Under the pieces are notes generated by a model. The model worked only from the letters and a program-made list of their open reading frames with translations, was not told where the DNA came from and made no database searches. Below are positions 513 to 14,353 of a stretch of 14,353 nt of DNA, in pieces. Position numbers and translations under genes: made by a program. Location: positions 1 to 14,353 of the forward strand of contig QMVG01000011.1 of assembly GCA_003660975.1 (NCBI GenBank), written 5' to 3'. Source of the DNA: Candidatus Micrarchaeota archaeon. GTDB taxonomy: Archaea; B1Sed10-29; B47-G15. Numbering within the stretch: the first letter of the stretch is position 1; every line of letters begins with the position of its first letter.

Positions 513-1490
513 CTACCTGGTTCCTTTGTACCCCCGGACATTTAAAGCCTTCCATCGCAACATCGGATGGCGACGAATTCGTTCGACCAAGGCTTTGTCT
601 CGTGTCAGCAACCAAGGTTCAATCTCACCGTGATCTAACAACCGGTCCAGGAATTCCATTTCCGCACCGGTGAAAGGCAGCACACACGCGAGCTTCTCCT
701 GGCACTCCTCCACGATGCGGCTTGCCCAGGATCGGATATCTCCTACGGAGTCTACGAAGTTCCGCCGTAGAAGGGGCAGAAGCTGGTCCTTGAGGTCTTT
801 CTCCTGAAAATCCACATCTTGGATCCTCACCTCGCGCCAATTGCGGCGGCTCATAGCGCCGTAGACGACGAAGGCCAGCCGAAGGCGTTCTCTGTTGAGC
901 TCCAATGAGGTTAGCAGGAGATGTACATCGAACAGATCCCGGCTGGCCTTGCGCGATAGAAGAGCGACCAGTTTTCCCGCCGCTAACTCGTGTAAGTCGA
1001 GTACGGGAATCCCAAGGGACTGGACCGTGCCAAGGGTTTGGGAATCCCTCGTTCCCGGAGGCCATAAAGGGACGCGGTACATGTAGTTGAGGTCGACCGC
1101 GAGATTGCCGCCCGTGCCCAGCGCACTCTCGTAGCGAAGCGACCATTTGCCGCCCGCGTGCTCTTCCTCTGATGGGAGACGCCGGATTGTGAAACCTTCG
1201 CGCTCACATACTGCTCGGATCGCTTCTTCCACCTTTGGCCGTTCCGCTCGCATGACCTCGCGCTTGGGGCTTCCTACGTAGTTGAGGTCGAGGTCGATGG
1301 AAAGCCTTGGGAGGTCAGCTAAGAAGAGATTCAAGGCGGTTCCACCTTTCAAAACCAAGCGATTTTTTAGAAAAGGATGACGAAAGAGGGCTTCCAGAAG
1401 ACGGAGCAGAAGCATGGCCTTTTCCAGCATCTCGGGGCGGAAACCGGTGGCTTCCGCCGCAGAAAGAAGGCCCTCCTTGGATATCCTCAC
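513..1490 (-). CDS. abiEii: Type IV TA toxin, AbiEii/AbiGii-family nucleotidyltransferase (~325 aa)
   Basis: LKGGTALNLF...RLSIDLDL (GG plus DxD NTase motif) and ELAAGKLVALLSRKASRDLFDV C-terminal motif. Start placed at GTG 1490, which overlaps the abiEi stop as GTGA and has AGGAGG at 1495-1500, rather than at 1544. Confidence 0.92.
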   Translation of the reverse strand: MRISKEGLLSAAEATGFRPEMLEKAMLLLRLLEALFRHPFLKNRLVLKGGTALNLFLADLPRLSIDLDLNYVGSPKREVMRAERPKVEEAIRAVCEREGFTIRRLPSEEEHAGGKWSLRYESALGTGGNLAVDLNYMYRVPLWPPGTRDSQTLGTVQSLGIPVLDLHELAAGKLVALLSRKASRDLFDVHLLLTSLELNRERLRLAFVVYGAMSRRNWREVRIQDVDFQEKDLKDQLLPLLRRNFVDSVGDIRSWASRIVEECQEKLACVLPFTGAEMEFLDRLLDHGEIEPWLLTRDKALVERIRRHPMLRWKALNVRGYKGTR

Positions 1491-2290
1491 AAAACCTCCT
1501 CCCAACGGCGCTCCAATATTTCTACCGGGACAACCAGGTTCCACTCCGGGACAAACTTCCCTGATTCCCTAAAAGCACGAACCATGTAGTGGGGGCTCCG
1601 GGGGCGGTGGGCCTGCAGGGCTGAGAGGTGTCGTTCCTCAACCATAAGCCTTTCGCGATGTTGCTCTAGGAAGAACCCAACCTTGGCCGCGGTAGTCGCA
1701 TTTTCTAAAAGCAGGGTATACTCCACGACCACATCCAGATCGAAGAACTCCACCATTTCCAAAGAGCGCCAGATTTCCTCCCACCCGCCTCCGAGGTCCG
1801 GACGATCCAACACATCCACCAACGTTCGTTCCAGGTTGGTGACTCGAACGGGAAGCCCGGATCGCTCGTGTGTTTCCACGCCGAAGAGCTCTTTTCCCTT
1901 GGCGCGAAGTGGCTTGGGGAACGGAACGCTTTGGAATACGTAAGAGCGGAACCTCAGGGGAGAGGAGCGCCGCAGGGTGAGATAGAGGATGAGATTGCTA
2001 ACAGAATAGGCTTTCCCGTGGAACTCGAGCGCGGTGTGGTAACCAAGCACCGCGTCCTCGGTCATTTTGGCCCCCAGGAGGTATGGGTCTACCGGGCATG
2101 AGGCTGGCTCCGTACTAGGGGGAACCACGACATACAGACCGCGACGGACCCGCAGTATTCGCCCCTTCTTTTGGTGATAAGCGAGGAGGGCTTTGCGGGT
2201 CCAGTTGCTAACGGGGCCGCGTTGCGCGAGAAAGGTTGTAAACTCGTCTACGGTGAACACCGGGTGCTTAGCGAAGAACTTTTCCAGCAT
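1487..2290 (-). CDS. abiEi: Type IV TA antitoxin / transcriptional regulator, AbiEi family (267 aa)
   Basis: N-terminal wHTH-like segment (VFTVDEF...KGRILRVRRGLY), YHTALEFHG, VTNLERTLVDVLDRP; directly upstream of and translationally coupled to the AbiEii gene. Confidence 0.9.
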   Translation of the reverse strand: MLEKFFAKHPVFTVDEFTTFLAQRGPVSNWTRKALLAYHQKKGRILRVRRGLYVVVPPSTEPASCPVDPYLLGAKMTEDAVLGYHTALEFHGKAYSVSNLILYLTLRRSSPLRFRSYVFQSVPFPKPLRAKGKELFGVETHERSGLPVRVTNLERTLVDVLDRPDLGGGWEEIWRSLEMVEFFDLDVVVEYTLLLENATTAAKVGFFLEQHRERLMVEERHLSALQAHRPRSPHYMVRAFRESGKFVPEWNLVVPVEILERRWEEVL

Positions 2291-2847: not shown

Positions 2848-3648
2848 TCAGCCATGATCACGGGCCCTTGCCGTTGAAAAGACCTTAATTGCGATATTTG
2901 TCTCGACTAATCCCTGAACGACCCGCATTGCAAGCTGAGCTTCTTTGCACCCTAAAACTACACCGGCTTCTAGGTTCGAAGTCAATCCCGGACCAGTCAG
3001 GTTGGCGGAGCCTAGGACCATGCGTTTTCCATCAGCGATTACCAATTTGGCGTGGAGGAGTCCTCCTTCCATTACGGGAGCCGAGTAAACGATCAGCTGG
3101 CCCCTGATCCGCTCCGCTTCTCGCCGTATAGCCTCTAACGCAACGCTCTGGTTGGAGGCCAAATTATCTGCCGCATGGGTGAGCACGATCAGTCGGACAC
3201 CGCGCTTTAGAGCTCGAATGACTGCGCTTAGTATTTCCATAATTCCTTTCTCTTGGAGGAAAGGTGAGGTCATTACCAGCTCCCGTCGAGCGGTCTTCAC
3301 TGTCTCCAAAATGGCCTTGAGGTAGGTGGAGCCGAGCTCCGAAGCTGCCGGATGCGTCTCGGGTAGCGTCCAAACTAATTGTGGCGTTCTTTCTTCTCCC
3401 TTCTCCTCTTCTACGAGGCTGTCCAGCCACCGCGCTAAGGGGCGAGGACGGAGCCGATTCTCCCTATCCAGAACCTCTGCTGCCCGAAGTTCTTCCCATA
3501 GAAGGCGGTCCCCGCCCTCTCCCAAAAGCGCGACCGCCCAATCCAGATCCTGTAAGCGCAGCACAGTGCCCAAGCGAAACCATAAGGCCGCCCCTAACCG
3601 ACGGAGCCGATCCTCATTAAGGCGCCGACAGATCTCCTCCCGTGTCAT
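2848..3648 (-). CDS. drmC: Phospholipase D-family nuclease, DISARM DrmC-like (~266 aa)
   Basis: Single HKD motif LHAKLVIADGKRMVLGSANLT...NLEAG, with LVWTLP and LVMTSPF upstream. Start placed at ATG 3648 (MTREEI) with GGAGG at 3652-3656; overlaps the DUF1998 gene end by 32 bp. Confidence 0.82.
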   Translation of the reverse strand: MTREEICRRLNEDRLRRLGAALWFRLGTVLRLQDLDWAVALLGEGGDRLLWEELRAAEVLDRENRLRPRPLARWLDSLVEEEKGEERTPQLVWTLPETHPAASELGSTYLKAILETVKTARRELVMTSPFLQEKGIMEILSAVIRALKRGVRLIVLTHAADNLASNQSVALEAIRREAERIRGQLIVYSAPVMEGGLLHAKLVIADGKRMVLGSANLTGPGLTSNLEAGVVLGCKEAQLAMRVVQGLVETNIAIKVFSTARARDHG

Positions 3649-5458
3649 AATCCTCCCAGTATCCGTGTTGAATTTCAGTGGGTGCCATGTTTTCCCATTC
3701 CACATCGCCTCCGTAAAGAACAGACCGGGAGAGGTAATGGTTGAAATATGGGCAGTTGTACTCCCGATGCAAACAGCCAGCACAACTCGCTCCGTTTTCA
3801 GCACATAGGGGATCATACAGGCAATAGCGCCCACCCTGGATGCTATCCTGGAGCCACTTTTTGAAGCGCAGGCTAAATAGCGTGGCCAGTCCACCGATTC
3901 GGGCTCCGTCGAAGCGGTTCACGAACAGCACAAAAGAGAGGGTCTCCGGCATAAAATACTCGCCTAGGCTCTGAGGGGAAAATCCGCTCCATTCAATGCG
4001 CTGAAGCAAAATGTGGCTGATGGTGTGCAGCAGATACAGGATCCCCTGGGCTGGGAGAGTCAGGTCGCGGTCGCCACGGAACCCCTCGGCGAGGATTTCT
4101 TGATAAAGACGGGCCCAGGCTTCCTCCGGGCTCTGTGGAGGGGAGCCGGAAAGCAAATTGTTCCGGATCAGCCAGTTCAGCACCCGCTGAGGGTCCAGCT
4201 GGAACCACAGGGCTTCGGTCTCCGCGGGTAAGACGAATAAGGGGATGTGGCCCTCCTCATCCGCTGGGAAGGGATTGAGAAGGGCACGCTGAGGATCTCG
4301 GGCCACCCGGCTATAGCCGAAGGCCAGAAGGGCCACCGGGAAATCATCGATGTGCACTGCCTCTCGAAGCCCTAGCCTTTCTACCTCTGCCTGTGCATCA
4401 TCCTTCAACTGCTTAGTGGTCGTCAGTTGATGCCTGCCTGAATCCATCAGGATTATGTGCTCCACCAGACGGCGGGGAGGGGGCAGAATGAGCTGATCCG
4501 AAGAAACAAGGTTTTTGATACGCTTGATTTCTGCTTGACCTGGAGGACGGGAGAGCTTTTCTTCATACTCTTGAGCCTTTTCAGGCTCGTGCTTTCTCAG
4601 TGCTTCGAGCAATTCACGGACTTCACTGTTGATTTCTAAGGAATTCCTTGCACGTTGTCCCATGATCTCCGCCACGGGTTTCTCCAGCAGACCCCAGCAC
4701 CGGGCCAGAAGCAAGGCATACTCATCAGGACCCAAGTTTGAAAACCGGCTTTCCTCAGATTGGTCGAAATTCACAAAGGCCGTAACGTGCGGAATGTAAA
4801 GGCCTGGCTCTCCAGTGGGATACACACGGAGAAAGCGTTCATACCTTCGCTGGCCCGCCTCAGCGTTTTGGACTCTCTCGCTATAGCGACACCTGCAAGG
4901 GGTCATACGGGGCTTTTGAATTTCGAACCCGCATACACCGCAGACCCATCGCGCCCTTTGTACTCGGCCGGGGTCGTAAAAACGTAGATAACTCCTGCCG
5001 TGCTGCGGACACCCTCGGTCCGGCAGGTGAATCTCCTCCAGACGTCCGCAGTTATGGGCCTCTACATAAGGTAACTGGAGGAGTTTCCCTCTGCAGCTCT
5101 CACGCGGGCACCGCCCATCGAAGTGATCCTCCTCCCGTGGACGGAAGACATGTCCACATTTCTGACATTGGAACGTGGTAGGAAAAAGACGGAAGCGCAC
5201 CTCCCGTGGCCGGCCAATCCGATACTGCCTGCGCTGGCGCTCGTCCCGCGGATCCGGGAAATCAGGGGGGTTCCCAAGGCGGTGCCAGACCTGCAAGGCT
5301 TCGTTCAGCGCTTCAAATAGCGCTAGCTCGTTGATTCGATCGGGCGAATCCATATCTACGCTGTCGACGATGCAGAGGCCGTAGCGGTCGTGCGGGAAAA
5401 TGGCCCCCGGAAGGTACCGGTAGAGAACTTGGGTTTGCCCGCGCTCAAACCTCGCCAT
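3617..5458 (-). CDS. drmB: DUF1998-domain Zn-binding protein, DISARM DrmB-like (613 aa)
   Basis: N-terminal RGQTQVLYRYLPGAIF; Cys clusters CQKC, CPRESC, CGVC; C-terminal LLHTISHILL...GGL...CLYDPLC...SCAGCLH...CPYFNHYLSR typical of DUF1998; 12 bp downstream of the helicase. Confidence 0.87.
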   Translation of the reverse strand: MARFERGQTQVLYRYLPGAIFPHDRYGLCIVDSVDMDSPDRINELALFEALNEALQVWHRLGNPPDFPDPRDERQRRQYRIGRPREVRFRLFPTTFQCQKCGHVFRPREEDHFDGRCPRESCRGKLLQLPYVEAHNCGRLEEIHLPDRGCPQHGRSYLRFYDPGRVQRARWVCGVCGFEIQKPRMTPCRCRYSERVQNAEAGQRRYERFLRVYPTGEPGLYIPHVTAFVNFDQSEESRFSNLGPDEYALLLARCWGLLEKPVAEIMGQRARNSLEINSEVRELLEALRKHEPEKAQEYEEKLSRPPGQAEIKRIKNLVSSDQLILPPPRRLVEHIILMDSGRHQLTTTKQLKDDAQAEVERLGLREAVHIDDFPVALLAFGYSRVARDPQRALLNPFPADEEGHIPLFVLPAETEALWFQLDPQRVLNWLIRNNLLSGSPPQSPEEAWARLYQEILAEGFRGDRDLTLPAQGILYLLHTISHILLQRIEWSGFSPQSLGEYFMPETLSFVLFVNRFDGARIGGLATLFSLRFKKWLQDSIQGGRYCLYDPLCAENGASCAGCLHREYNCPYFNHYLSRSVLYGGDVEWENMAPTEIQHGYWEDYDTGGDLSAP

Positions 5459-5470
5459 ATTCCTACCTTA

Positions 5471-8400
5471 CTATTCCTGGCTCAAACGCCTTAGTAAGTG
5501 GTCGTCCGCCTCAGGCGAAGTCCGAAAGGGAACGCCGGATTCGATATCCCGAAGGCTCCGCATCGGCTGCGGTCGAACGCCCATGAATAAATACTTCTTA
5601 TGAGTAGTCCTGAGGCTAAACCCTTGACATTCTATGGCTTGTTCTAGAGCTTGAGCCATCATTCGCTTTAGATCCACATCGTAGGCGCTGCGGTCTAAGC
5701 CATAGGCCTTCCGCAATTTGGCGAGTATTTGTCTCCGCTTCTCGGGATCTCTCAGGATTTCCAAGACTTGGTCACGACGCAATAGCCCTTCGCTAACCAT
5801 CATCAGCCCGCAGAAGATACCTGGAAAGGTACGGTCGATGGCGCGACGAGCAAAGCGGTTGACCGGCACAGGCTGAACCATCCGATCTAAGTTGTCGTGG
5901 AACTCCCGAAACCGGTTATAGATACTGGAAGTCCGTGCGGAATAAGCGGGGAGCAAAGTGACCACCAATCCTAGGTGCTTTCGACCGCAGCGGCTGGTAG
6001 CCTGAATGTATTCCGCAACCTCGCCGGGAAAATGGTCGAGGACCATTAGATTGATGCGTTCAAAGTCCACCCCATGACTGATCATTTTCGTGGCTACTAC
6101 TGCATCCAAATGGTCTTCGTCCTCCCAAGATGGAGGATTATCCGCGAGTTGGACAACGTCCGTAATCTCTGCTGGCTTGGACCGGCTGGACAAATACTTG
6201 ACATTGGGTTCGCGGGACTCAAATGCTGGCAGATCAAGGCGGACTAGGTAATCCTTGGCCCGGGTCCCCCCGGCCAGGTTGCCAACGTAGACCAAGGCGA
6301 TGTTGTAAAACTCCAAGAGCTGGCGAAGCGCGGATTCATCCTTCAACCCTGCACAGATAGCCAGACCCTGATAGGGGTTCTGAATCATTTCCGCTACGGT
6401 GTCTAGGAGAACCCCCGCACACCATGCAGCAAGATCCGTGGGATGCCCGCCGGGCGGTCGGAAGCCTACAAAGATTCGATGGAATCGCGTCGAATCGCCA
6501 TCCCGTTCCGGTTCCATATAGAAGCTCCGGTGGCGCTCGTAGCCCCGAGCGGGGGACTTTCGGGCCCACCGTACCCCATAGAGGTGCTGGACTTGATGTT
6601 CGAAGCCTTCGATTGTGGCTGTGGCGGCGATCACCTTAGGTGGGAAGTGAGAGACCTCCTCGGCCAGGTAGCGAATCAATGTCTCGTAGTGGCCCGCAAA
6701 GGCTCCGAGTTCCTCTTGTAGCAAATGTAGCTCATCCTGAATCTGCAGAGCTGGTGCTGGATCGTGCACAGGCACATATCTTAGTTGTTTCCCTTTGCAA
6801 CCAAAGTCACAATGTTTGCCCCGTCCATATCCATGGACACATTGCCATTCAGGACCGCGGAGGAGGATCCCGAAGCGGTGCTGGAGTCCAATGGTGGCAA
6901 TTTTATCTACAGTTCCCACGATCAAGGCAGGCAAATAGCGATAAATTTCTGAATCAGACACTAGCAAGGGCAGCTCCTCCCCACAGGACGTGCAACGGTG
7001 CCGGAGCCGCACATTCTTACGGTCTGGTTCCACCTTAACAGAATCTTTTCCCCCGCAAGCAGGACAGTTTGGAACCACACGGTATCGCTCGAGATCTTCT
7101 GGGCTCAGCTTATCTATATCTCCAGGCTTCAAGATGTTAGGAGTTTGGGCTGAGCCCACAAAGTAGCCTAAGCGCACCGGATCGGATTGATCAAGTTTAT
7201 CCTTGAGGAGTTTTTGGCGTTCCTTTTCCGTTTCCCAAATCACCCGGAGGGCCCGTTGGAGCTGTTGAATGCTTAACATCCGTAGGGGGAGCCTTAGCCA
7301 GGCTGTCACCCCGCGCTCCTTCCCTCGTAGCCGGTCGTAAAGGATAGCGCAGCTGATGAGTCCCAAGTAGGCCTCGGTCTTGCCCCCACCCGTCGGGATC
7401 CACAGGACCTCACCGATCTCCAGGTGGTCATCCCAGCGGCGCGGCGTCCCGGGTGGCCACTCCCCTTGGCAGTAACCTTCTCGGAGAGCCAGAGCAGGGA
7501 GCTGGCTCACGATGAAAACCACCTGAAATAGTCGCCAACGGTCGAAGCGGCCTTGGGCTACGCGTATCATGACCCGGTTCATAGCCTGGAAGGCCTCTTG
7601 AAGGCGAGAATCGACTGCCATCGCCGCAATTCCTGCAGCGAACCGGTCGATCTCTTCCTGGAACGCCTCGAGATCTTTCCGGCACACCTTCAGCGAGTCC
7701 GAATCCAGACTCAGATCATTGGCCGCTATTTTCCGTTCCCACTCTTGGGCAAATTCTTCCATTTCCCGACGGATACGCTCCAGAGCTTCCAGAGGCTCTT
7801 GACTCAGGATGCTGAACCGGGTTTCCTCGGATGCTCGCAGGATCACCCGAGGTTGGGCATAGTGGGCCAGTGCTTGGGTTTGGAATGTTCTGCGGTCTTC
7901 GCTAACCTCGATGGAGGTATTGTGACCTACAGCCCACACCCTGCGGTCGTACATATAGTCTTCAGGGATCGGCAAGAGCTCCACAGGAGAGACTTCTCCT
8001 TGAAGCACTCGGACGGTGAGATGGACATCGCCTAAAATGTGGTAATAATCCTCAGAGCGCTTCTCAAAGTTGGACGGCGTGAGGTTCCGTACGTAGATGC
8101 GGAGCCGGACGGTCCCGTTAGGCTGGGGGTCGGCGTAAAGCGTTAGGGCCGCCCGGAGGGGAGGACGGTTTCGGGGATAGCCTTGGACGATCCGGTCCAA
8201 CCATCGCTGGAAGCTTTCCTCATTAGCCAGCGCGTCCACGGGCACTTCGGGCACACGCTCAAAAGTCGGCATGGCGTCTGGGGCAGCGCAGGCTTGATCG
8301 AGAACCCGGTCCACCTCTGCCTGGATGACTCCCTGATCTGAAAGGCGCATACGTCGGCCACCTGGGATGACCAGCGAGATAGGGCCCACACGGACGAGCC

Positions 8401-8914
8401 AACGCCGGCATACCTCCGCCAGGGTCATACTGCCTGAAGGTTCACCTGGATCTATGTCAGCGCCTAGGGAACTGCGTTGCTCCTCAAAAGTTGGCAGGTG
8501 GCGGGTGTAGATCGCGAACGCTACCTTCACCTCCAGCCGGATCTCTCCCTGTTCGGGTCGGATTCGGAGCTCCATCCCCAGCGCGGAAGGGGAGCGACGG
8601 GAGACGCTTGGCGTCTCGCGCTCCTCGACGCTTTCAAACTCTCTTTCCGGCGCTTCAGAAATTTTGGCGAGCTTAGCGCTCTTTTTTACTTTCACAGTCT
8701 GGATCTCCTCTGGCTCCTCCACCGGCTCCCCTTCGGCAAACTCTGGCTCGTCCACTTGGCGATCTGAGGGGACCAAGACCCCCAAGCGACAGTGGTCGAT
8801 GGGCAAGCGGTTTACAATCCGATCTTCATCCCGACCTGCTAGCTGGCGTTCTAGCCGGTCGATCAAGAATTGAACTAGCTCCAATTCATTGTGATAAGAA
8901 AGTTTGCCTTTCAT
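5471..8914 (-). CDS. drmA: SF2 DEAD/DEAH-box helicase, DISARM DrmA-like (1147 aa)
   Basis: WRLFQ Q-motif region, PTGGGKTEAY (I), PLRMLSIQQ (Ia), GTVDK (Ib), DELH (II), AATAT (III), ATKMISHGVD (V), YIQATSRCGR (VI); CPAC/CTSC Zn insert; C-terminal MRSLRDIE; AGGAGG RBS at 8925-8930. Confidence 0.9.
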   Translation of the reverse strand: MKGKLSYHNELELVQFLIDRLERQLAGRDEDRIVNRLPIDHCRLGVLVPSDRQVDEPEFAEGEPVEEPEEIQTVKVKKSAKLAKISEAPEREFESVEERETPSVSRRSPSALGMELRIRPEQGEIRLEVKVAFAIYTRHLPTFEEQRSSLGADIDPGEPSGSMTLAEVCRRWLVRVGPISLVIPGGRRMRLSDQGVIQAEVDRVLDQACAAPDAMPTFERVPEVPVDALANEESFQRWLDRIVQGYPRNRPPLRAALTLYADPQPNGTVRLRIYVRNLTPSNFEKRSEDYYHILGDVHLTVRVLQGEVSPVELLPIPEDYMYDRRVWAVGHNTSIEVSEDRRTFQTQALAHYAQPRVILRASEETRFSILSQEPLEALERIRREMEEFAQEWERKIAANDLSLDSDSLKVCRKDLEAFQEEIDRFAAGIAAMAVDSRLQEAFQAMNRVMIRVAQGRFDRWRLFQVVFIVSQLPALALREGYCQGEWPPGTPRRWDDHLEIGEVLWIPTGGGKTEAYLGLISCAILYDRLRGKERGVTAWLRLPLRMLSIQQLQRALRVIWETEKERQKLLKDKLDQSDPVRLGYFVGSAQTPNILKPGDIDKLSPEDLERYRVVPNCPACGGKDSVKVEPDRKNVRLRHRCTSCGEELPLLVSDSEIYRYLPALIVGTVDKIATIGLQHRFGILLRGPEWQCVHGYGRGKHCDFGCKGKQLRYVPVHDPAPALQIQDELHLLQEELGAFAGHYETLIRYLAEEVSHFPPKVIAATATIEGFEHQVQHLYGVRWARKSPARGYERHRSFYMEPERDGDSTRFHRIFVGFRPPGGHPTDLAAWCAGVLLDTVAEMIQNPYQGLAICAGLKDESALRQLLEFYNIALVYVGNLAGGTRAKDYLVRLDLPAFESREPNVKYLSSRSKPAEITDVVQLADNPPSWEDEDHLDAVVATKMISHGVDFERINLMVLDHFPGEVAEYIQATSRCGRKHLGLVVTLLPAYSARTSSIYNRFREFHDNLDRMVQPVPVNRFARRAIDRTFPGIFCGLMMVSEGLLRRDQVLEILRDPEKRRQILAKLRKAYGLDRSAYDVDLKRMMAQALEQAIECQGFSLRTTHKKYLFMGVRPQPMRSLRDIESGVPFRTSPEADDHLLRRLSQE

Positions 8915-8966
8915 AGAGGTCTGTCCTCCTGACTAACTCAATTTAAGCTGTTCTCCGTGATCATCC

Positions 8967-11219
8967 TCACTTGTGCACCTCACATATTGTGACGACTTCC
9001 ACGGCGGCAAAGACGTCGTATACTTCCTCACCGATTTCGCGGGCGAACTGCAAGGCCTCCTTATACCCATACCCTGTGCCAGATACGATGCTTCGCAGGA
9101 TCTGATGCAAGGCTCGACCTGCTTGACGGCGCAGCTTCCTCTCCACACGAATCCTGCGAAAGGTTTCGTGAATCATTTGTTCGTTCGGAAAAAGGCCGCT
9201 ACGCCTCGCCATAATGGCCATATCCTTTTCATAGAGGGGTGCAAGCGTGGCTTCGTCTAAGTCAGGGCCTCGAAAGTAGGTGACAAACGCTGGATATTGT
9301 ATACTCAGACCTTCTCGAGCCAATTGAGCATGAAGATCCCTTAGGCTAACACAGTTCTTCCGCAGTTGATCCTTTGCAGCTTGCCATAGATCCAGATATA
9401 GACGATCTACGTGTCCCATACGAGCTCGTAAAGCGTCGAGCAGACGCTCATAGAGTCCTTCATAAACGGCATCGACAAGCAGCACCAACCGCATACCAGG
9501 ACGCAGCTCCGCTGCCTGCATACGCCGTACCTGGTCCTGTGCTTCATAGAATACATACACAAACTGACTGGGAAAATATGTCAAACACCGCCCGTCCTCC
9601 AAGGCAACCTGGATTACCTCATCAACACCGGAAGGAATGACCGAGCGCCCAGACGTATCAACCTCTCTGTCAGCACTCCACTCAAATTCCTGATCCCATG
9701 ATTCAAGCAGACGTTCAATAACGAATCCCGGTGTAGGATAAACAATCCGTGCTCTGCGTGTTTGTAGGACTTCTCTCTCCATAACCAGCGCTGGACGTGG
9801 CGTTGGAGACGGCATTTTGGGGAAATGCTCAAAACCTAGCCGTGTAAGAGCTGCCCGACGGGACTCCAGTTGTTGCCACTTCTCCAAGTCGGCGTAGAAC
9901 CGGCTCCAGAACTCTTGCTCAAGCGCTGCCTCGTAAGGATAGGCGAAAACCTCTATAACTTCTGGAAAATAAAGATCGAGGAACCGATAGCTTGCCGGCC
10001 GGTATCCAGGAAGGAGGGTTTGGCGGATGTCCCCAGCGGCGACACGGCGTGCTTCCTGCATCGGGGTAATCACCTCGATTCTCTCAAGGACCCGCTCTCC
10101 GAAGAGAGAAAGAAGACAAAGCATCAGGATCCTTTGATGAGCCCAGGTAGGCACGGCCACGCGCAAGAAGTTCGACTCTGTAGAGCGAAGTAATTCATCT
10201 AAACGAAAAGCCAATGCCCAGAATTTGGGTGGTTCTTGAAGGGCGATCAAGTACTGGTAGGCGCGGTCCAAAGCCGAAAGAAGGGAATACCAGCGAACTT
10301 CCATATCGGCCTGGGGTGGCTCCTGTGCCCGCAGACGCTCCAGACGATTACGGAGCGATGGCCGGACAGTTTCCTCTAAATCAGACAAAGGAACAACCAG
10401 CTGGCGCAGCTGATGGTAAATCCCCCAGGCCTCTTTCAAGGACAGGAATGAGCTTTGAGCCACATCCAGGCAACTCCATAAACACATCTCGGCTTCCTCT
10501 AAAGCTTCCCCCAGCTCTCCTGCTTCACAGATCCATATACGCCGTTGGGCATCCATAGGCTCTTGCTTCGCTGCTGGATCCCAGAGCCAGGTTGTTAGCT
10601 CCTCGTGATTATTAATAATGGGTCGTTTGTTCTCAGGGAGAGGTGGTGTAATGAGTATGCAGAGTGGCACATTTTGGAATGTATTTAGTAAATCGGGTAA
10701 CTGCCTTAACACATAGGGCAGGAACGAATCTATGACAACCGATGAAAGATGATGGATTGTACGCCTTTGAATCCAGCCCGGGTTAGCAAAATATACTCGA
10801 GGTTTGTCTGATGAGCTTTCTTCAGTATAGCGGCTAAGGGTTTCCACTTCCCAAACTTCAGTAATTGAGATTCCATTCAGCTTGACATTCTGTAGCAGTG
10901 TCATTGACCGACGCGGCACAGGGGTAAGTACTATAATGTCGCCATTCAGCAACGGTCGCCCTGTCTGGTGTCGATGGACTAGATCCTGGACCAGAAGACC
11001 TATCGTCACAGCTGGGATTAAGTTATCTGCGGGTGGAGCGGCCATAAGGAGCAGACGCAGAGGACGCTGAGCCCTCTGGGCGGCAATGACTGCCATGGCT
11101 GTGCTGATCCGCTCGAACAGTCGGAACGTCTCCGGGAGCATCCTCAACATCGCCCCGGCCGGGGTATTAGGATCAAGACCCCAGAACCTATCGGATCCAA
11201 TCCCTTCCTTTGAGTTCAA
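8967..11219 (-). CDS. Large hypothetical protein, probable DISARM DrmE-like (~730-750 aa); start uncertain (TTG 11219 or ATG 11150)
   Basis: Long ORF between the methylase and drmA. Size and position match DrmE. It has no Walker A or SNF2 motifs, so it is not DrmD. The CDS is secure; the DrmE identity is inference. Confidence 0.62.
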   Translation of the reverse strand: MNSKEGIGSDRFWGLDPNTPAGAMLRMLPETFRLFERISTAMAVIAAQRAQRPLRLLLMAAPPADNLIPAVTIGLLVQDLVHRHQTGRPLLNGDIIVLTPVPRRSMTLLQNVKLNGISITEVWEVETLSRYTEESSSDKPRVYFANPGWIQRRTIHHLSSVVIDSFLPYVLRQLPDLLNTFQNVPLCILITPPLPENKRPIINNHEELTTWLWDPAAKQEPMDAQRRIWICEAGELGEALEEAEMCLWSCLDVAQSSFLSLKEAWGIYHQLRQLVVPLSDLEETVRPSLRNRLERLRAQEPPQADMEVRWYSLLSALDRAYQYLIALQEPPKFWALAFRLDELLRSTESNFLRVAVPTWAHQRILMLCLLSLFGERVLERIEVITPMQEARRVAAGDIRQTLLPGYRPASYRFLDLYFPEVIEVFAYPYEAALEQEFWSRFYADLEKWQQLESRRAALTRLGFEHFPKMPSPTPRPALVMEREVLQTRRARIVYPTPGFVIERLLESWDQEFEWSADREVDTSGRSVIPSGVDEVIQVALEDGRCLTYFPSQFVYVFYEAQDQVRRMQAAELRPGMRLVLLVDAVYEGLYERLLDALRARMGHVDRLYLDLWQAAKDQLRKNCVSLRDLHAQLAREGLSIQYPAFVTYFRGPDLDEATLAPLYEKDMAIMARRSGLFPNEQMIHETFRRIRVERKLRRQAGRALHQILRSIVSGTGYGYKEALQFAREIGEEVYDVFAAVEVVTICEVHK

Positions 11220-13089
11220 GCTGTTCCCCCCATTTCCAATAAAGCTGAAGAAGTTGATTTACTTTGCCCTCCCGAAGCGCTTCCGCCAGAGCCAGGCCCA
11301 TCGCTATCAGGGCTTTTTCCTCATCGGTAGACCCAACCCAGTAAAATGGACAAGAAGGTGCAGGTACTTCACAGCGCATACACTCTAGGACCAGATCGCA
11401 CCGCATGGACCTGGAACCTTTTCGAGTGGGATCCCAGGTTTCGTCGGTCTGCACCGTGGCTAAAGCATGAATATGAAAGCCAGCCCGATCTAGGGCAACG
11501 CACAGCGCCTGCCACGCTGCTAGCTTTCGGTTACGAAAAGTGAACACTAGACGGCCTTCTGGTTGGAGAACCCGATGGCATTCCTGGAAGCAGCGTGTTA
11601 GGAGTTCCATATAACTTTCCGTGTCACGCCCTTGGAAGCGGTTAGAAGATGCCTCCTGCTTTTCCCTAATGGAAAGCGGCTTCTGGTAAAAGCTCATCCA
11701 GAAGTGAAACAGACGGGCAAGCTCGCCGTACTGAATATCATCATGATAAGGAGGGTCGGTAAGAACAAGGTCTACAGTCCTGTCCCGCAAGGCCATTTGA
11801 ACGCTGCTCCCAAGAACTAGATAGATTCCTGACTCTAAACCTAGATCCAAGTAAGGGGAAGGATCCGACAGCAAATGAACTTGCTGGTCCATCCCAATTT
11901 CACAGCGAACCCAATCGGCCACTTTTTTCATCGTTTGCAGTCTTCGAGGCAAAGTTCCCCGACCTACAGGCGAAAGCGGGTTGATCTCAACGGCCAAGAG
12001 GGTATGTGCATAGCGATGATGGGCCAATGCCTCTACCGCCTTCGGATGATAACGTTCCCAACGAGTAAGGAAAGCCGGCATCTCGGCCATCCCTAGAACG
12101 GCCAAAGCCAGATGATCTCGGCATGGGTGGTCCATATTGCTCAGCACCCGAAGGCCCTCAAGTAAGATCGCCGCCTGCCGATCTGTGTACAAGTCCCCCC
12201 AAAACCGGAAGCCAGCGTTGATCAAGCGGTTTGTCTCCAAACCTGGTGGGATTGGTTGCCGAAGCTGTGGAAAAACTTCCGAAGCCTGACGCGCTTCCAC
12301 AGGGTCAGCTAGATCGGCTGGACGAAGGTGAACTCGATGACGTCCGTTAGCGATGACGAGCTCCTGGACCAACGCTGGATACCATCGCGGTGGACTCGTC
12401 AGAAAAGCTGCTTTGAACGTCAAGTGTCCACACAATGGACATTGAAACTCTCCCCTTCTCTTTGGAGTCTGAATCAGGCTTTTGCAGCTGGGACATTGTG
12501 TGGGCGGGGAAGTCTGAGGCCCCGACCAGACCATTCCGCACGCGGGACAACCATAATAGGCTTGATCTTCGCCGGCTTGCCGCGAGGTGAGAGAGATCAT
12601 AGTATCCGGAAATAGTATAATATCTCCGCCACATTCCGGGCACTTTCCTCTCCTGACCCTTAAAATATGAATCAGCTCTCGACCATCCTGTCGGATGTAA
12701 GGTCGGCGTAAAGGCTCTAGGATTTCGAGCAACCATCGACCAGCCTCATCCAGCGCCTCGAGAGAAACAGGGGTCAACGCCGTTTTCAGCCCGAAGACCG
12801 GCCAAGGATACAGCTCCTGGACATAAATTGGAAGCCCCCGCCGCGCCGCCTCGACAGCAATGGTGCCACCTCCTCCAAAGGGGTCAGCCACTCGAACCGC
12901 ACCCGCTGTGTCCAAGATAGCTCCAAATAGTTGGCTAGGGCGGCGGGCCCACCATCGGTAGGCCGACCTCATAGGAAGTAATCTTTCCCGCAACCGGATT
13001 TCTGCTCGGATCCAGCTGCTAAGATGGTTCCAGTCCACTAGGGAAAGCAGATATTCTTGACCGACTATTTTCCGTTGTGTACGGATCAT
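11188..13089 (-). CDS. Amino (N6-adenine/N4-cytosine) DNA methyltransferase with Zn ribbons, COG1743/DUF1156-like (~633 aa; alternative start GTG 13128)
   Basis: YRWWARRP, SAM-binding motif I ADPFGGGGT, four CxxC motifs (CPEC, CPAC, CPSC, CPLC), WGDLYTDRQ, catalytic motif IV LTDPPY. Motif I precedes motif IV. Confidence 0.87.
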   Translation of the reverse strand: MIRTQRKIVGQEYLLSLVDWNHLSSWIRAEIRLRERLLPMRSAYRWWARRPSQLFGAILDTAGAVRVADPFGGGGTIAVEAARRGLPIYVQELYPWPVFGLKTALTPVSLEALDEAGRWLLEILEPLRRPYIRQDGRELIHILRVRRGKCPECGGDIILFPDTMISLTSRQAGEDQAYYGCPACGMVWSGPQTSPPTQCPSCKSLIQTPKRRGEFQCPLCGHLTFKAAFLTSPPRWYPALVQELVIANGRHRVHLRPADLADPVEARQASEVFPQLRQPIPPGLETNRLINAGFRFWGDLYTDRQAAILLEGLRVLSNMDHPCRDHLALAVLGMAEMPAFLTRWERYHPKAVEALAHHRYAHTLLAVEINPLSPVGRGTLPRRLQTMKKVADWVRCEIGMDQQVHLLSDPSPYLDLGLESGIYLVLGSSVQMALRDRTVDLVLTDPPYHDDIQYGELARLFHFWMSFYQKPLSIREKQEASSNRFQGRDTESYMELLTRCFQECHRVLQPEGRLVFTFRNRKLAAWQALCVALDRAGFHIHALATVQTDETWDPTRKGSRSMRCDLVLECMRCEVPAPSCPFYWVGSTDEEKALIAMGLALAEALREGKVNQLLQLYWKWGEQLELKGRDWIR

Positions 13090-13687
13090 GGTTGGATTTT
13101 GTAGAGATCTTCCACCATACCCTCTCACAGCACTCAGAGGTTGTGGGAAGGTACGAGCTAGGGTCTTCGTCTTTATCCTTCACATCCCGCCGGTCAATGC
13201 GAGGCTGGAAGTTGGAGGAGTATTTGATGCCGTAAGGCGGGTCCACGTAGATCATCTGGACCTTTCCCGCCATCCCCTCCTTGACCAGAAGGGAGTTCAT
13301 CACGAGGAGCGAGTCACCCAAGATAAGTCTGTTGGCCCAACCCACCTCGTGTTGGTAAAACTCTATTTGCTGATCGGGACGCAGAGGTGTTTCGCCGAAA
13401 AGGGAAAGTTGCGGTTCAGGCTTTTTGACAGCCTCAAGGATAGCCCGGGTAGAGATGCGCTCATGGATGTGCAGCGAGACGACATCTACTTCAAAGGAGG
13501 TGTGTTCGGCTTTTCCAGCCCAAACGAGCTGAGGATCGAGATGTGGATCATATTCATAGCGAGTCGTTCGCCTCTCCTTAACCTCATATGTCGGCGCAAT
13601 CCCTGCCGGAGGGTTGTTCTTCCTCCTGGCCTCCTCGTGCCGATAATCCCCTACCTGCTGATTCTTAGTCCTTCTTCTCCTGACCAT
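13019..13687 (-). pseudogene. mod: Truncated Type III R-M Mod-like (beta-class) DNA methyltransferase, N-terminal fragment
   Basis: DYRH...RKNNPPAG, YDPHLDPQLVWAGK, LHIHERIST, WANRLILGDSLLVMNSLL, KVQMIYVDPPYGIKYSSNFQP. Mod-like sequence appears to end at KDKDED (~13161) and is followed by an atypical tail; no FxGxG motif; no res gene in the window. Confidence 0.8.
13637..13687. repeat. 51-bp direct repeat (mod 5' end), copy 1
   Basis: 44/51 identity to 14133-14183 by manual alignment. Confidence 0.9.
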
Positions 13688-14057
13688 ATCCTTTTACTCC
13701 TCTAATGCATGCCTTTGGCCACCGGCTTCCCGACCATCATATCTACATCCCCTCTGCACGACTGCCAAGTAAATTGCCGTGTGCATCGCAAAGAAAAGAA
13801 GTGTTGGAAGGGTGGAGTGTTGTCTGACTTGCTGCGGAGATCAAATCTTCCCCTCGAGTCGCTCTCTCAATCCTCGCCGTATTTATCCGGGCTTAGAGAC
13901 CGTGGGGGAATGGGAGTTACTCTTTCAAACACTCTCACCGAGTGGAAGTACTTCGGAAGAGCGGCAGATAAAGCTTTAACAACGACGCGGTGTGTGCTCT
14001 TGAAAGGAAAACCCATTCCCAAGATAATTAAAACTTTATATTAAGATGTTTTAAAAA

Positions 14058-14183
14058 TCAAGGGATTTGATGTGAAAATGTCATCTTTTTTATCTTCCTG
14101 GATTCGTGCAGAATTTGGCTTAAGGTGAGAAGGTGCCAATAATCCCCTACCTGCTGGTCCATAGTCCTTCTTCTCTTGGGCAT
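14058..14183 (-). pseudogene. Second mod 5'-end remnant (41-aa ORF, first 17 codons mod-like)
   Basis: Translates MPKRRRTMDQQVGDYWH..., versus MVRRRRTKNQQVGDYRH of the 13687 gene; has its own GGAGGA RBS at 14191-14196; similarity ends at 14133. Confidence 0.72.
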
Positions 14184-14353
14184 CCTTAGATCCTCCCCAC
14201 CAATGCCTTTAGGCGTGAAAGTTACCCCCTTTTTCACAAGTAGATAACCTCCTGTAGGATGTGTTTGCCTATCCTCGGCTTCAGGCCGGATTTCTCCACC
14301 AGATCTACCCTTTTCCCCAACAACTCACTGAGATAGATCTCAATCTCAATAAA

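Follow-up and report, generated by a model that had tools for sequence, protein, structure and literature searches.

Contig QMVG01000011.1 of a Candidatus Micrarchaeota archaeon (assembly GCA_003660975.1) carries five consecutive genes that together resemble a DISARM defence system (Table 1). The window analysed here is this entire contig (C11, 14,353 bp), one of 130 in a 1.33-Mb assembly that is 89.66% complete, so that our view of the gene neighbourhood ends at the contig edges. All five open reading frames (ORFs) run uninterrupted on the minus strand and follow each other 5′ to 3′ as methylase, DrmE-like protein, DrmA, DrmB and DrmC. The methylase gene is the first of the operon and overlaps the DrmE-like gene by 32 bp; the subsequent junctions are a 52-bp gap, a 12-bp gap and another 32-bp overlap. 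Each of the five products can be aligned with homologues over almost its whole length and, therefore, no truncation is apparent, and the catalytic motifs of the methylase, DrmA and DrmC are intact. The TTG start of the DrmE-like gene is supported by the conservation of its family, which begins at about position 3, and homologues of DrmC align beginning at residues 1–10 as counted from the ATG. A whole-window scan for promoters and terminators returned no more sites than chance would give, and none of them lies near the ends of the operon. An earlier note, made from the letters of this stretch, had described five intact, co-oriented genes with these very junctions, and the ORF coordinates agree with it exactly.

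Table 1. Features of the 14,353-bp window
Feature	Position	Strand	Product and remarks
Amino-methyltransferase	11188..13089	-	633 amino acids (aa) from ATG; alternative GTG at 13128 gives 646 aa
DrmE-like protein	8967..11219	-	750 aa, TTG start
DrmA, YprA-family superfamily 2 (SF2) helicase	5471..8914	-	1147 aa
DrmB, DUF1998-type zinc-binding DrmA partner	3617..5458	-	613 aa
DrmC, phospholipase D (PLD)-family nuclease	2848..3648	-	266 aa from ATG at 3648; longest ORF starts at 3894
Type III Mod-like methylase, 5′ remnant	13163..13687	-	~175 aa; PADLOC MTase_III 8.7e-28
AbiEi / AbiEii	2290..1487 / 1544..513	-	Complete toxin–antitoxin pair directly 3′ of DrmC; PADLOC 2.9e-118, 1.8e-107

The last three genes of the operon encode the components shared by DISARM systems. 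DrmA matches the PADLOC DrmA model (2e-103) and Pfam Helicase_C (6.3e-7), and its residues 459–1041, that is the helicase core only, align to DrmA of the Serratia class 1 system (PDB 7s9v, chain E; 4.4e-51). It contains a Walker A motif (GGGKT at 511), a DELH motif at 727 and a CPAC/CTSC zinc site, and PADLOC, Pfam, 7s9v and these two motifs alike mark it as the helicase of a DISARM core. Residues 50–110 (window positions 8614–8767) form an acidic stretch with 17 aspartates or glutamates in 61 residues. DrmB is recognised by PADLOC (3e-32) and, over nearly its full length, by NCBIfam DrmB_fam (1e-13, 51 bits at a cut-off of 240), and has a cysteine cluster at its C terminus. DrmC matches the PADLOC DrmC model (3.2e-19), Pfam PLDc_2 (1.5e-14) and NCBIfam DrmC_I (87.8 bits, cut-off 133), and its HKD motif, HxK(x)4D(x)6GSxN at residue 199, identifies it as the PLD protein of the core. 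That core is quoted in the literature as the drmA helicase, the DUF1998 gene drmB and the PLD gene drmC together with a methylase; here, a DPPY methylase, whose activity is predicted, lies within the operon as its first gene.

The 750-residue protein encoded between methylase and DrmA is a putative remote member of the DrmE family. On its own, it reaches 23 bits with Pfam DrmE_C (7.2e-5), below the gathering threshold of 27, and 18.6 bits with NCBIfam DrmE_fam over residues 264–748 (4.6e-4, cut-off 80). Its relatives carry the signal more clearly: DrmE_C was found in all nine relatives searched (E ≤ 0.01) and DrmE_fam in 13 of 16 (best 2.5e-19), with DISARM_DrmE in two of the 16. In addition, clusters of DrmE families lie nearest to it in ESM Atlas (score 0.98). 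The gene identities proposed in the earlier note thus stand, with PADLOC supporting DrmA, DrmB and DrmC and with Pfam, NCBIfam and ESM Atlas supporting the DrmE-like protein.

DrmE is described in the few papers found to mention it as a gene of unknown function, and the modelled structure of its relative in the window is of interest for this reason. An AlphaFold2 (AF2) model built from 16 sequences (predicted local distance difference test, pLDDT, 76.7; predicted template modelling score, pTM, 0.64) has two alpha/beta domains that are split by a helical insert (~50–480), a disordered linker at 484–532 and a C-terminal part, composed of a beta-barrel and a helical bundle, which corresponds to DrmE_C. 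Foldseek returned 174 PDB matches to this model at E ≤ 0.001, the best being the helicase domain of Hef (1.1e-7), followed by MDA5/RIG-I, FANCM, XPF and Chd1, at template modelling (TM) scores of ~0.3–0.4. The Atlas model points in the same direction, its residues 5–460 aligning to DEAD/DEAH helicase clusters (TM 0.43–0.44 by query) and the full protein to a cluster named “DrmE family” (TM 0.57). A motif search found neither GK[ST] nor DE.[HD] in the DrmE-like protein, whereas DrmA has both. Among the proteins at the second position of related systems, 12 of 15 are likewise without GK[ST] and the other three have one around residues 497–553 only. On these models, the DrmE-like protein is predicted to be an SF2 pseudo-helicase, with a helicase fold and without the ATPase motifs.

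In the methylase, a WWARRP motif, which we take to be typical of DUF1156 proteins, is followed by motif I (DPFGGGGT), an insert of ~370 residues that carries two four-cysteine zinc ribbons, and motif IV (DPPY). FGGGG lies at residue 71, the CxxC pairs at 150, 181, 199 and 217, and DPPY at 445; the order of motif I, zinc-ribbon insert and motif IV is presumably the alpha-like arrangement of amino-methyltransferases. Across 53 homologues, WWARR, D.F.G.GT, the four CxxC pairs and DP.Y are invariant. As a rule of thumb, DPPY points to N6-adenine and SPPY to N4-cytosine methylation. Because the motif here is DPPY and not SPPY, the product is probably N6-methyladenine rather than N4-methylcytosine.

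The earlier note had called the enzyme a DPPY methylase of the DUF1156 type. The motif stands, and the kinship holds as a distant one. Pfam recognises N6_N4_Mtase (5.7e-8), and the Pfam matches of the window methylase do not include DUF1156 (PF06634). PADLOC reports PglXI (1.8e-23, a partial match to the catalytic stretch 440–581), DUF1156_MTase (2.6e-8) and also HmaB, and NCBIfam DUF1156_antiphage (NF042963) gives 55.7 bits where the cut-off is 1000, covering the catalytic part alone. Annotated DUF1156 proteins on plasmids are 24.6–26.7% identical to the window methylase by tblastn. One of the related loci described below, L008, carries a second, paralogous methylase just 3′ of DrmC (12383–14323), which is 25.7% identical to the window methylase and bears the Pfam DUF1156 N-terminal domain (5.1e-5). 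Taken together, PADLOC, NCBIfam, tblastn and this paralogue support the placement of the window enzyme as a putative distant relative of the DUF1156 methylases.

The AF2 model of the methylase is of high confidence (pLDDT 90.2, pTM 0.90). Foldseek found no PDB match to it at E ≤ 0.001, and its weak matches are class I S-adenosylmethionine-dependent methylase domains such as those of BpuSI, HsdM, CamA and TaqI; phmmer against the PDB gave no match. With 597 proteins at E ≤ 1e-5, the methylase family exceeds what the initial, word-limited search for the DrmE-like protein, with its 10 relatives, had implied; the best 120 of these 597 are all at least 40% identical to the query and ~630 residues long. 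A scan of the viral_contigs set with the methylase profile found no relative.

Class 1 DISARM is described as the SNF2 gene drmD and the PglX-like methylase gene drmMI (pfam13659) with drmABC, and class 2, as in Bacillus paralicheniformis, as drmE and drmMII with drmABC (Ofir et al, 2018, as described in papers that cite it). The published PADLOC definitions correspondingly ask for DrmD and DrmMI in type I and for DrmE and DrmMII in type II, and a paper on Asgard genomes describes a class II system that additionally carries drmD. The absence of an SNF2 gene and of a 5-methylcytosine (m5C) methylase, noticed earlier within the window, extends to the whole assembly (89.66% complete), where profile searches with PF00176 (SNF2) and PF00145 (m5C methylase) gave no match. 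Thus, neither hallmark of class 1 was found, PF00176 being absent and the methylase matching PglXI over residues 440–581 only. The DrmMI model is absent among the 25 of 30 PADLOC matches listed for the window methylase and among the 20 and 19 listed for its orthologues in L005 and L006, and PF13659 is not among the Pfam matches of the window methylase. PF00145, which stands for the class 2 methylase DrmMII, had no match in the source genome or in the genomes carrying L005 and L006. No SNF2 gene was seen adjoining the module in L005, L012, L015 and L016; a type I HsdR gene lies upstream of it in L011.

To follow the five genes into other genomes, a profile made from 10 relatives of the DrmE-like protein was used to collect 11 loci (L005–L015; two from species genomes and nine from metagenomes), to which the five window proteins were compared by tblastn. 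The methylase lies directly upstream of the DrmE-like gene in nine of the 11, and all five genes are present in identical order in seven (L005, L006, L008, L009, L010, L011 and L012). At L007, the order matches and the contig end falls inside the methylase, and L015 has kept methylase, DrmE-like protein, DrmA and DrmB and has no PLD match. In the place of the PLD gene, L015 has two ORFs of 161 and 225 aa without a Pfam family (17996–19145). The junctions between methylase and DrmE-like genes in the relatives overlap or nearly abut. A search with the methylase by tblastn against 72,556 plasmids, independent of the DrmE-like profile, returned four records, of which one covers at least 80% of the query: plasmid NZ_CP045120 of Rubrobacter tropicus, with the identical five genes at ~117.6–128.8 kb followed by an integrase. 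RefSeq annotates these genes, in order, as hypothetical, hypothetical, helicase-related, hypothetical and PLD-like. Recurring synteny, which had been named beforehand as decisive, is thereby established in nine of 11 loci and on the Rubrobacter plasmid.

The module recurs in distant lineages and is rare within each of them. HMMER with the DrmE-like profile against 1.84 billion representative sequences returned 384 matches at E ≤ 1e-3, 145 at 1e-10 and 85 at 1e-30, the strongest being mostly full-length (~750–840 residues). Carriers of the module span Actinomycetota, a Syntrophales metagenome-assembled genome (MAG), a Deltaproteobacteria MAG, metagenomes and one member of a small-genome phylum. 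Within the phylum of the window, only one of 31 genomes has the methylase, namely the source genome itself; the other 30 measure 0.3–1.2 Mb (rounded). A sample of 401 genomes from the phylum of L005 contains one close methylase and six paralogues of 26–30% identity. Integrases flank L005, L009 and L016, and the module of L015 adjoins type IV secretion genes (a TraG/TrwB-like coupling protein and a T2SSE ATPase). Since integrases or conjugation genes flank several copies, the pattern fits horizontal spread of the module, and the finding of a 10-kb operon for defence in a genome this small likewise points to horizontal acquisition.

Phylogenetic trees separate this module from other DISARM systems. 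The DrmA tree comprises 22 rows (IQ-TREE quick mode, LG+G4, 1129 columns, support by the Shimodaira–Hasegawa-like approximate likelihood ratio test, SH-aLRT, only); several rows deviate in amino acid composition, and canonical class 2 (B. paralicheniformis) is not among them. The 11 DrmAs that are linked to the zinc-ribbon methylase form a single clade (SH-aLRT 100), whose sister is DrmA of Streptomyces cellulosae (94), a system with a homologous (26% identity, E 3e-34) but divergently encoded methylase. The next branches are Allocoleopsis (83), which has an m5C methylase, and then Halarchaeum with Halomicrobium, the former with an m5C methylase and the latter with a protein annotated as “DrmE family protein” and without a methylase beside it. 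Together these form a clade of 15 rows (support 100) on a long branch of 1.42, apart from class 1 (Paracoccus, Deinococcus), a Bacillus cereus SNF2 system and a Lactiplantibacillus m5C system. The methylase tree (12 rows) recovers the same four groups as the DrmA tree, with 41–64% methylase identity among co-inherited members. By this congruence, methylase and DrmA have evidently been inherited together in an old module. The earlier note had spoken of a hybrid system, and this reading does not survive, because the DrmA clade and the methylase tree recover the same groups, as expected of an old module inherited as a unit rather than of classes mixed recently. Its phrase of a class-2-like core survives in part: the gene content, with a DrmE-like protein, agrees with class 2, whereas the DrmA clade is set apart by a long branch that it shares with haloarchaeal, cyanobacterial and Streptomyces systems.

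We therefore read the locus, with a probability of roughly three in four, as the intact operon of a distinct and conserved DISARM-family subtype that would act against phages or plasmids. According to this reading, the zinc-ribbon methylase would methylate a host sequence motif and so mark self DNA, and DrmA, as an active SF2 helicase, would form with DrmB a translocase for incoming DNA, which it would engage at free single-stranded ends. The model for such loading at DNA ends is the solved Serratia DrmAB (7s9v). DrmC would be an accessory nuclease that adds to the damage of the incoming DNA. In the most speculative step, the DrmE-like protein may bind DNA or act as an adaptor, as a subunit without catalytic activity that couples the methylation status to DrmAB, in the slot that the SNF2 helicase DrmD occupies in class 1. 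Of the class 2 genes, drmA, drmB and drmE are reported to be essential and loss of the methylase to be deleterious.

Several observations weigh against this reading. The PADLOC DrmE models give no match to the 750-residue protein, DrmB has no Pfam family at E ≤ 0.01 and hence no DUF1998 (PF09369), and the NCBIfam scores of all five proteins fall far short of their cut-offs (DrmA 364 versus 950, DrmB 51 versus 240, DrmC 87.8 versus 133, DrmE 18.6 versus 80 and the methylase 55.7 versus 1000). The SF2 fold of the DrmE-like protein is that of models with a pLDDT of 76.7 and TM scores of 0.3–0.4. Pfam also reports weak matches of the methylase to RNA methylase families (UPF0020, RsmD-like). L013 and L014, which lie on short contigs and have a DrmE-like protein of 29% identity, are without this methylase, and L014 instead has a BamHI-like restriction enzyme and N6_N4 methylase pair upstream. 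(A TPR/NACHT-like protein is encoded farther upstream of this pair.) The monophyly of the 11 DrmAs is partly built in, because these members were found by their similarity to window proteins. In the Serratia class 1 system, the methylases are reported to be dispensable, with loss non-toxic, no autoimmunity and protection largely independent of methylation, so that strict self-marking need not apply here. For every member of the family, defence, methylation, the base and the motif are predictions from sequence.

The Serratia results invite a different view of the methylase, in which DrmAB itself would sense the DNA structure, that is free ends, and methylation would only tune its activity, the enzyme being an accessory rather than the self-marker. 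Deletion without autoimmunity and methylation-independent protection agree with this view, and the acidic stretch of DrmA could, by its position, take the role of the trigger loop that autoinhibits class 1 DrmA. Yet in all close relatives the gene has held its position immediately upstream and has been inherited along with the core, and the reported cost of methylase loss in class 2 is at odds with a modulating role; we regard this view as improbable. The arrangement of the genes bears on another alternative, in which an orphan or type II-like methylase, with or without the 750-residue protein, and a methylase-less DrmABC are independent neighbours in a defence island. Defence genes do cluster, this contig also carries AbiE and a type III Mod remnant, and DrmAB cores on plasmids have many different neighbours. 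However, such neighbours would hardly keep a constant order in nine of 11 loci and in Rubrobacter, with methylase and DrmE genes that overlap or nearly abut and with congruent methylase and DrmA trees, and we give this alternative very little credence. The same trees speak to an ordinary class 2 system whose m5C methylase was recently swapped in a trivial cassette exchange. A DrmE-like protein with DrmABC is class 2 gene content, and the related DrmE-bearing systems of Halarchaeum and Allocoleopsis have m5C methylases; against this stand co-inheritance of methylase and DrmA at 41–64% identity, a homologue of the methylase already present in the Streptomyces sister lineage, the long DrmA branch of 1.42 and the failure of PADLOC DrmE models to detect the 750-residue protein. 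A recent swap is thus highly unlikely.

The subtype that we favour admits a bolder formulation, which we put forward as doubtful. In a third class, an ATPase-dead DrmE would be the degenerate counterpart of DrmD and would pair with a DUF1156-like N6-adenine methylase that reads or writes the self mark, thereby licensing DrmAB. If this were true, every DISARM class would consist of a “(pseudo)helicase + methylase” sensing pair ahead of a common DrmABC effector.

Both flanks of the operon hold other defence genes. Upstream, the Mod remnant resembles the intact gene that opens contig C21 of the same assembly (2–2407, at least 802 aa), with 95.7% amino acid identity over 70 residues and 83% DNA identity, and this gene is followed on C21 by a Res-like ORF of 946 aa. 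The rest of the Mod gene is not in the window, and the similarity ends ~70 bp before the start of the DISARM-like methylase, so that the remnant, as far as the alignment tells, marks the upstream boundary of the module. On visual inspection, the start of the Mod gene recurs as a short copy at ~14130–14180. The juxtaposition suggests that defence cassettes turn over at this one site. Downstream, an 85-bp direct repeat (81% identical; 368–452 and 2677–2760) brackets AbiE, one copy lying 3′ of AbiEii and the other 3′ of DrmC. These are its sole copies in the assembly, and a folding signal was not found in either (z = 0.51 and 0.20). The repeat could be an att-like duplication that arose when the AbiE cassette was inserted.

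Teaching and annotation customarily recognise two classes of DISARM, and the module described here represents a third gene layout that has been kept across distant lineages. Such loci go unnamed in annotation because the curated NCBI models name none of the five proteins and PADLOC misses the DrmE-like protein. The copy on a plasmid of R. tropicus, a cultured and harmless bacterium, opens the layout to direct tests. A helicase fold that lacks ATPase motifs, as predicted here, is a first structural hypothesis for DrmE and suggests a common logic between class 1, with DrmD, and DrmE-bearing systems. The novelty is limited in that the existence of “many uncharacterized DISARM-like classes” has already been acknowledged in print. 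We found no description of this five-gene layout in the literature, and the supplementary tables of Bell et al (2025) may list the clade.

In comparison with known systems, the module shares with class 2 a putative DrmE-family protein, DrmA, DrmB, DrmC, one methylase per operon and the lack of SNF2. It differs in its methylase, a DPPY zinc-ribbon DUF1156-like enzyme instead of an m5C enzyme, and in its DrmE-like protein, which the PADLOC DrmE models miss and which scores 18.6 bits where NCBIfam demands 80. In addition, its DrmA lies on a branch separate from that of the Lactiplantibacillus m5C system, the only Firmicutes m5C row of the tree. With class 1, as in Serratia sp. SCBI (7s9v), it has in common the DrmABC core, with the DrmA core match of 4.4e-51, an amino-methyltransferase and not an m5C enzyme alone, and an SF2-fold protein encoded beside the methylase. 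Unlike class 1, it has no SNF2 protein, its SF2-fold protein lacks the ATPase motifs, its methylase is PglX-like in the catalytic region only and not over its length, and the N-terminal 458 residues of its DrmA do not match class 1 DrmA. Class 1 DrmAs reach 1057–1399 bits on NCBIfam DrmAS, compared to 364 for the window DrmA. A DrmAS score exceeding that of DrmAL was considered as a class 2 signal and rejected, since the class 1 DrmAs of Paracoccus and Deinococcus pass the DrmAS cut-off.

Among related systems outside the module are those that plasmids of Streptomyces cellulosae, Halarchaeum sp. CBA1220 and Allocoleopsis franciscana carry; they share the deep DrmA clade and DrmB and encode a protein of ~800–900 residues ahead of DrmA with a weak DrmE_fam signal or none. 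These second proteins have no BLASTP similarity to that of the window. DrmC follows DrmB in Streptomyces and Halarchaeum, whereas the PLD gene of Allocoleopsis lies upstream beside an m5C methylase. The methylase of Streptomyces is a homologous zinc-ribbon enzyme that is encoded divergently, that of Halarchaeum and Allocoleopsis an m5C enzyme. All three are annotated merely as helicase-related, hypothetical or PLD-like. The Streptomyces system (L025, CP109195, 14297–18641) adjoins Tn7-like genes for a TnsA-like endonuclease, a transposase and an AAA ATPase. The DrmA query also matched 17 Bacillus plasmid records, and one B. cereus locus (L027, NZ_AP022916) reads drmA, DUF1998, a helicase-related protein of 1084 aa, DUF4391 and a site-specific methylase, an order that is not the textbook one of class 1.

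The anti-phage DUF1156 methylases (NF042963; PADLOC DUF1156_MTase and HmaB) resemble the window enzyme in their DPPY catalytic region and motif I, but their profiles are ~950 residues long compared to ~630 here, and the partners here are DrmE, DrmA, DrmB and DrmC. Finally, ARMADA (Bell et al, 2025; 10.1101/2025.09.15.676423) is described as another DISARM-related system built around a YprA-family helicase that has retained a methylase. Its own set combines a PglX-like methylase with two helicases, one a fused YprA protein and the other active and BrxHII-like, whereas the module of the Micrarchaeota contig has its helicase split into DrmA and DrmB and combines it with a PLD nuclease, a predicted pseudo-helicase and a DUF1156-like methylase.

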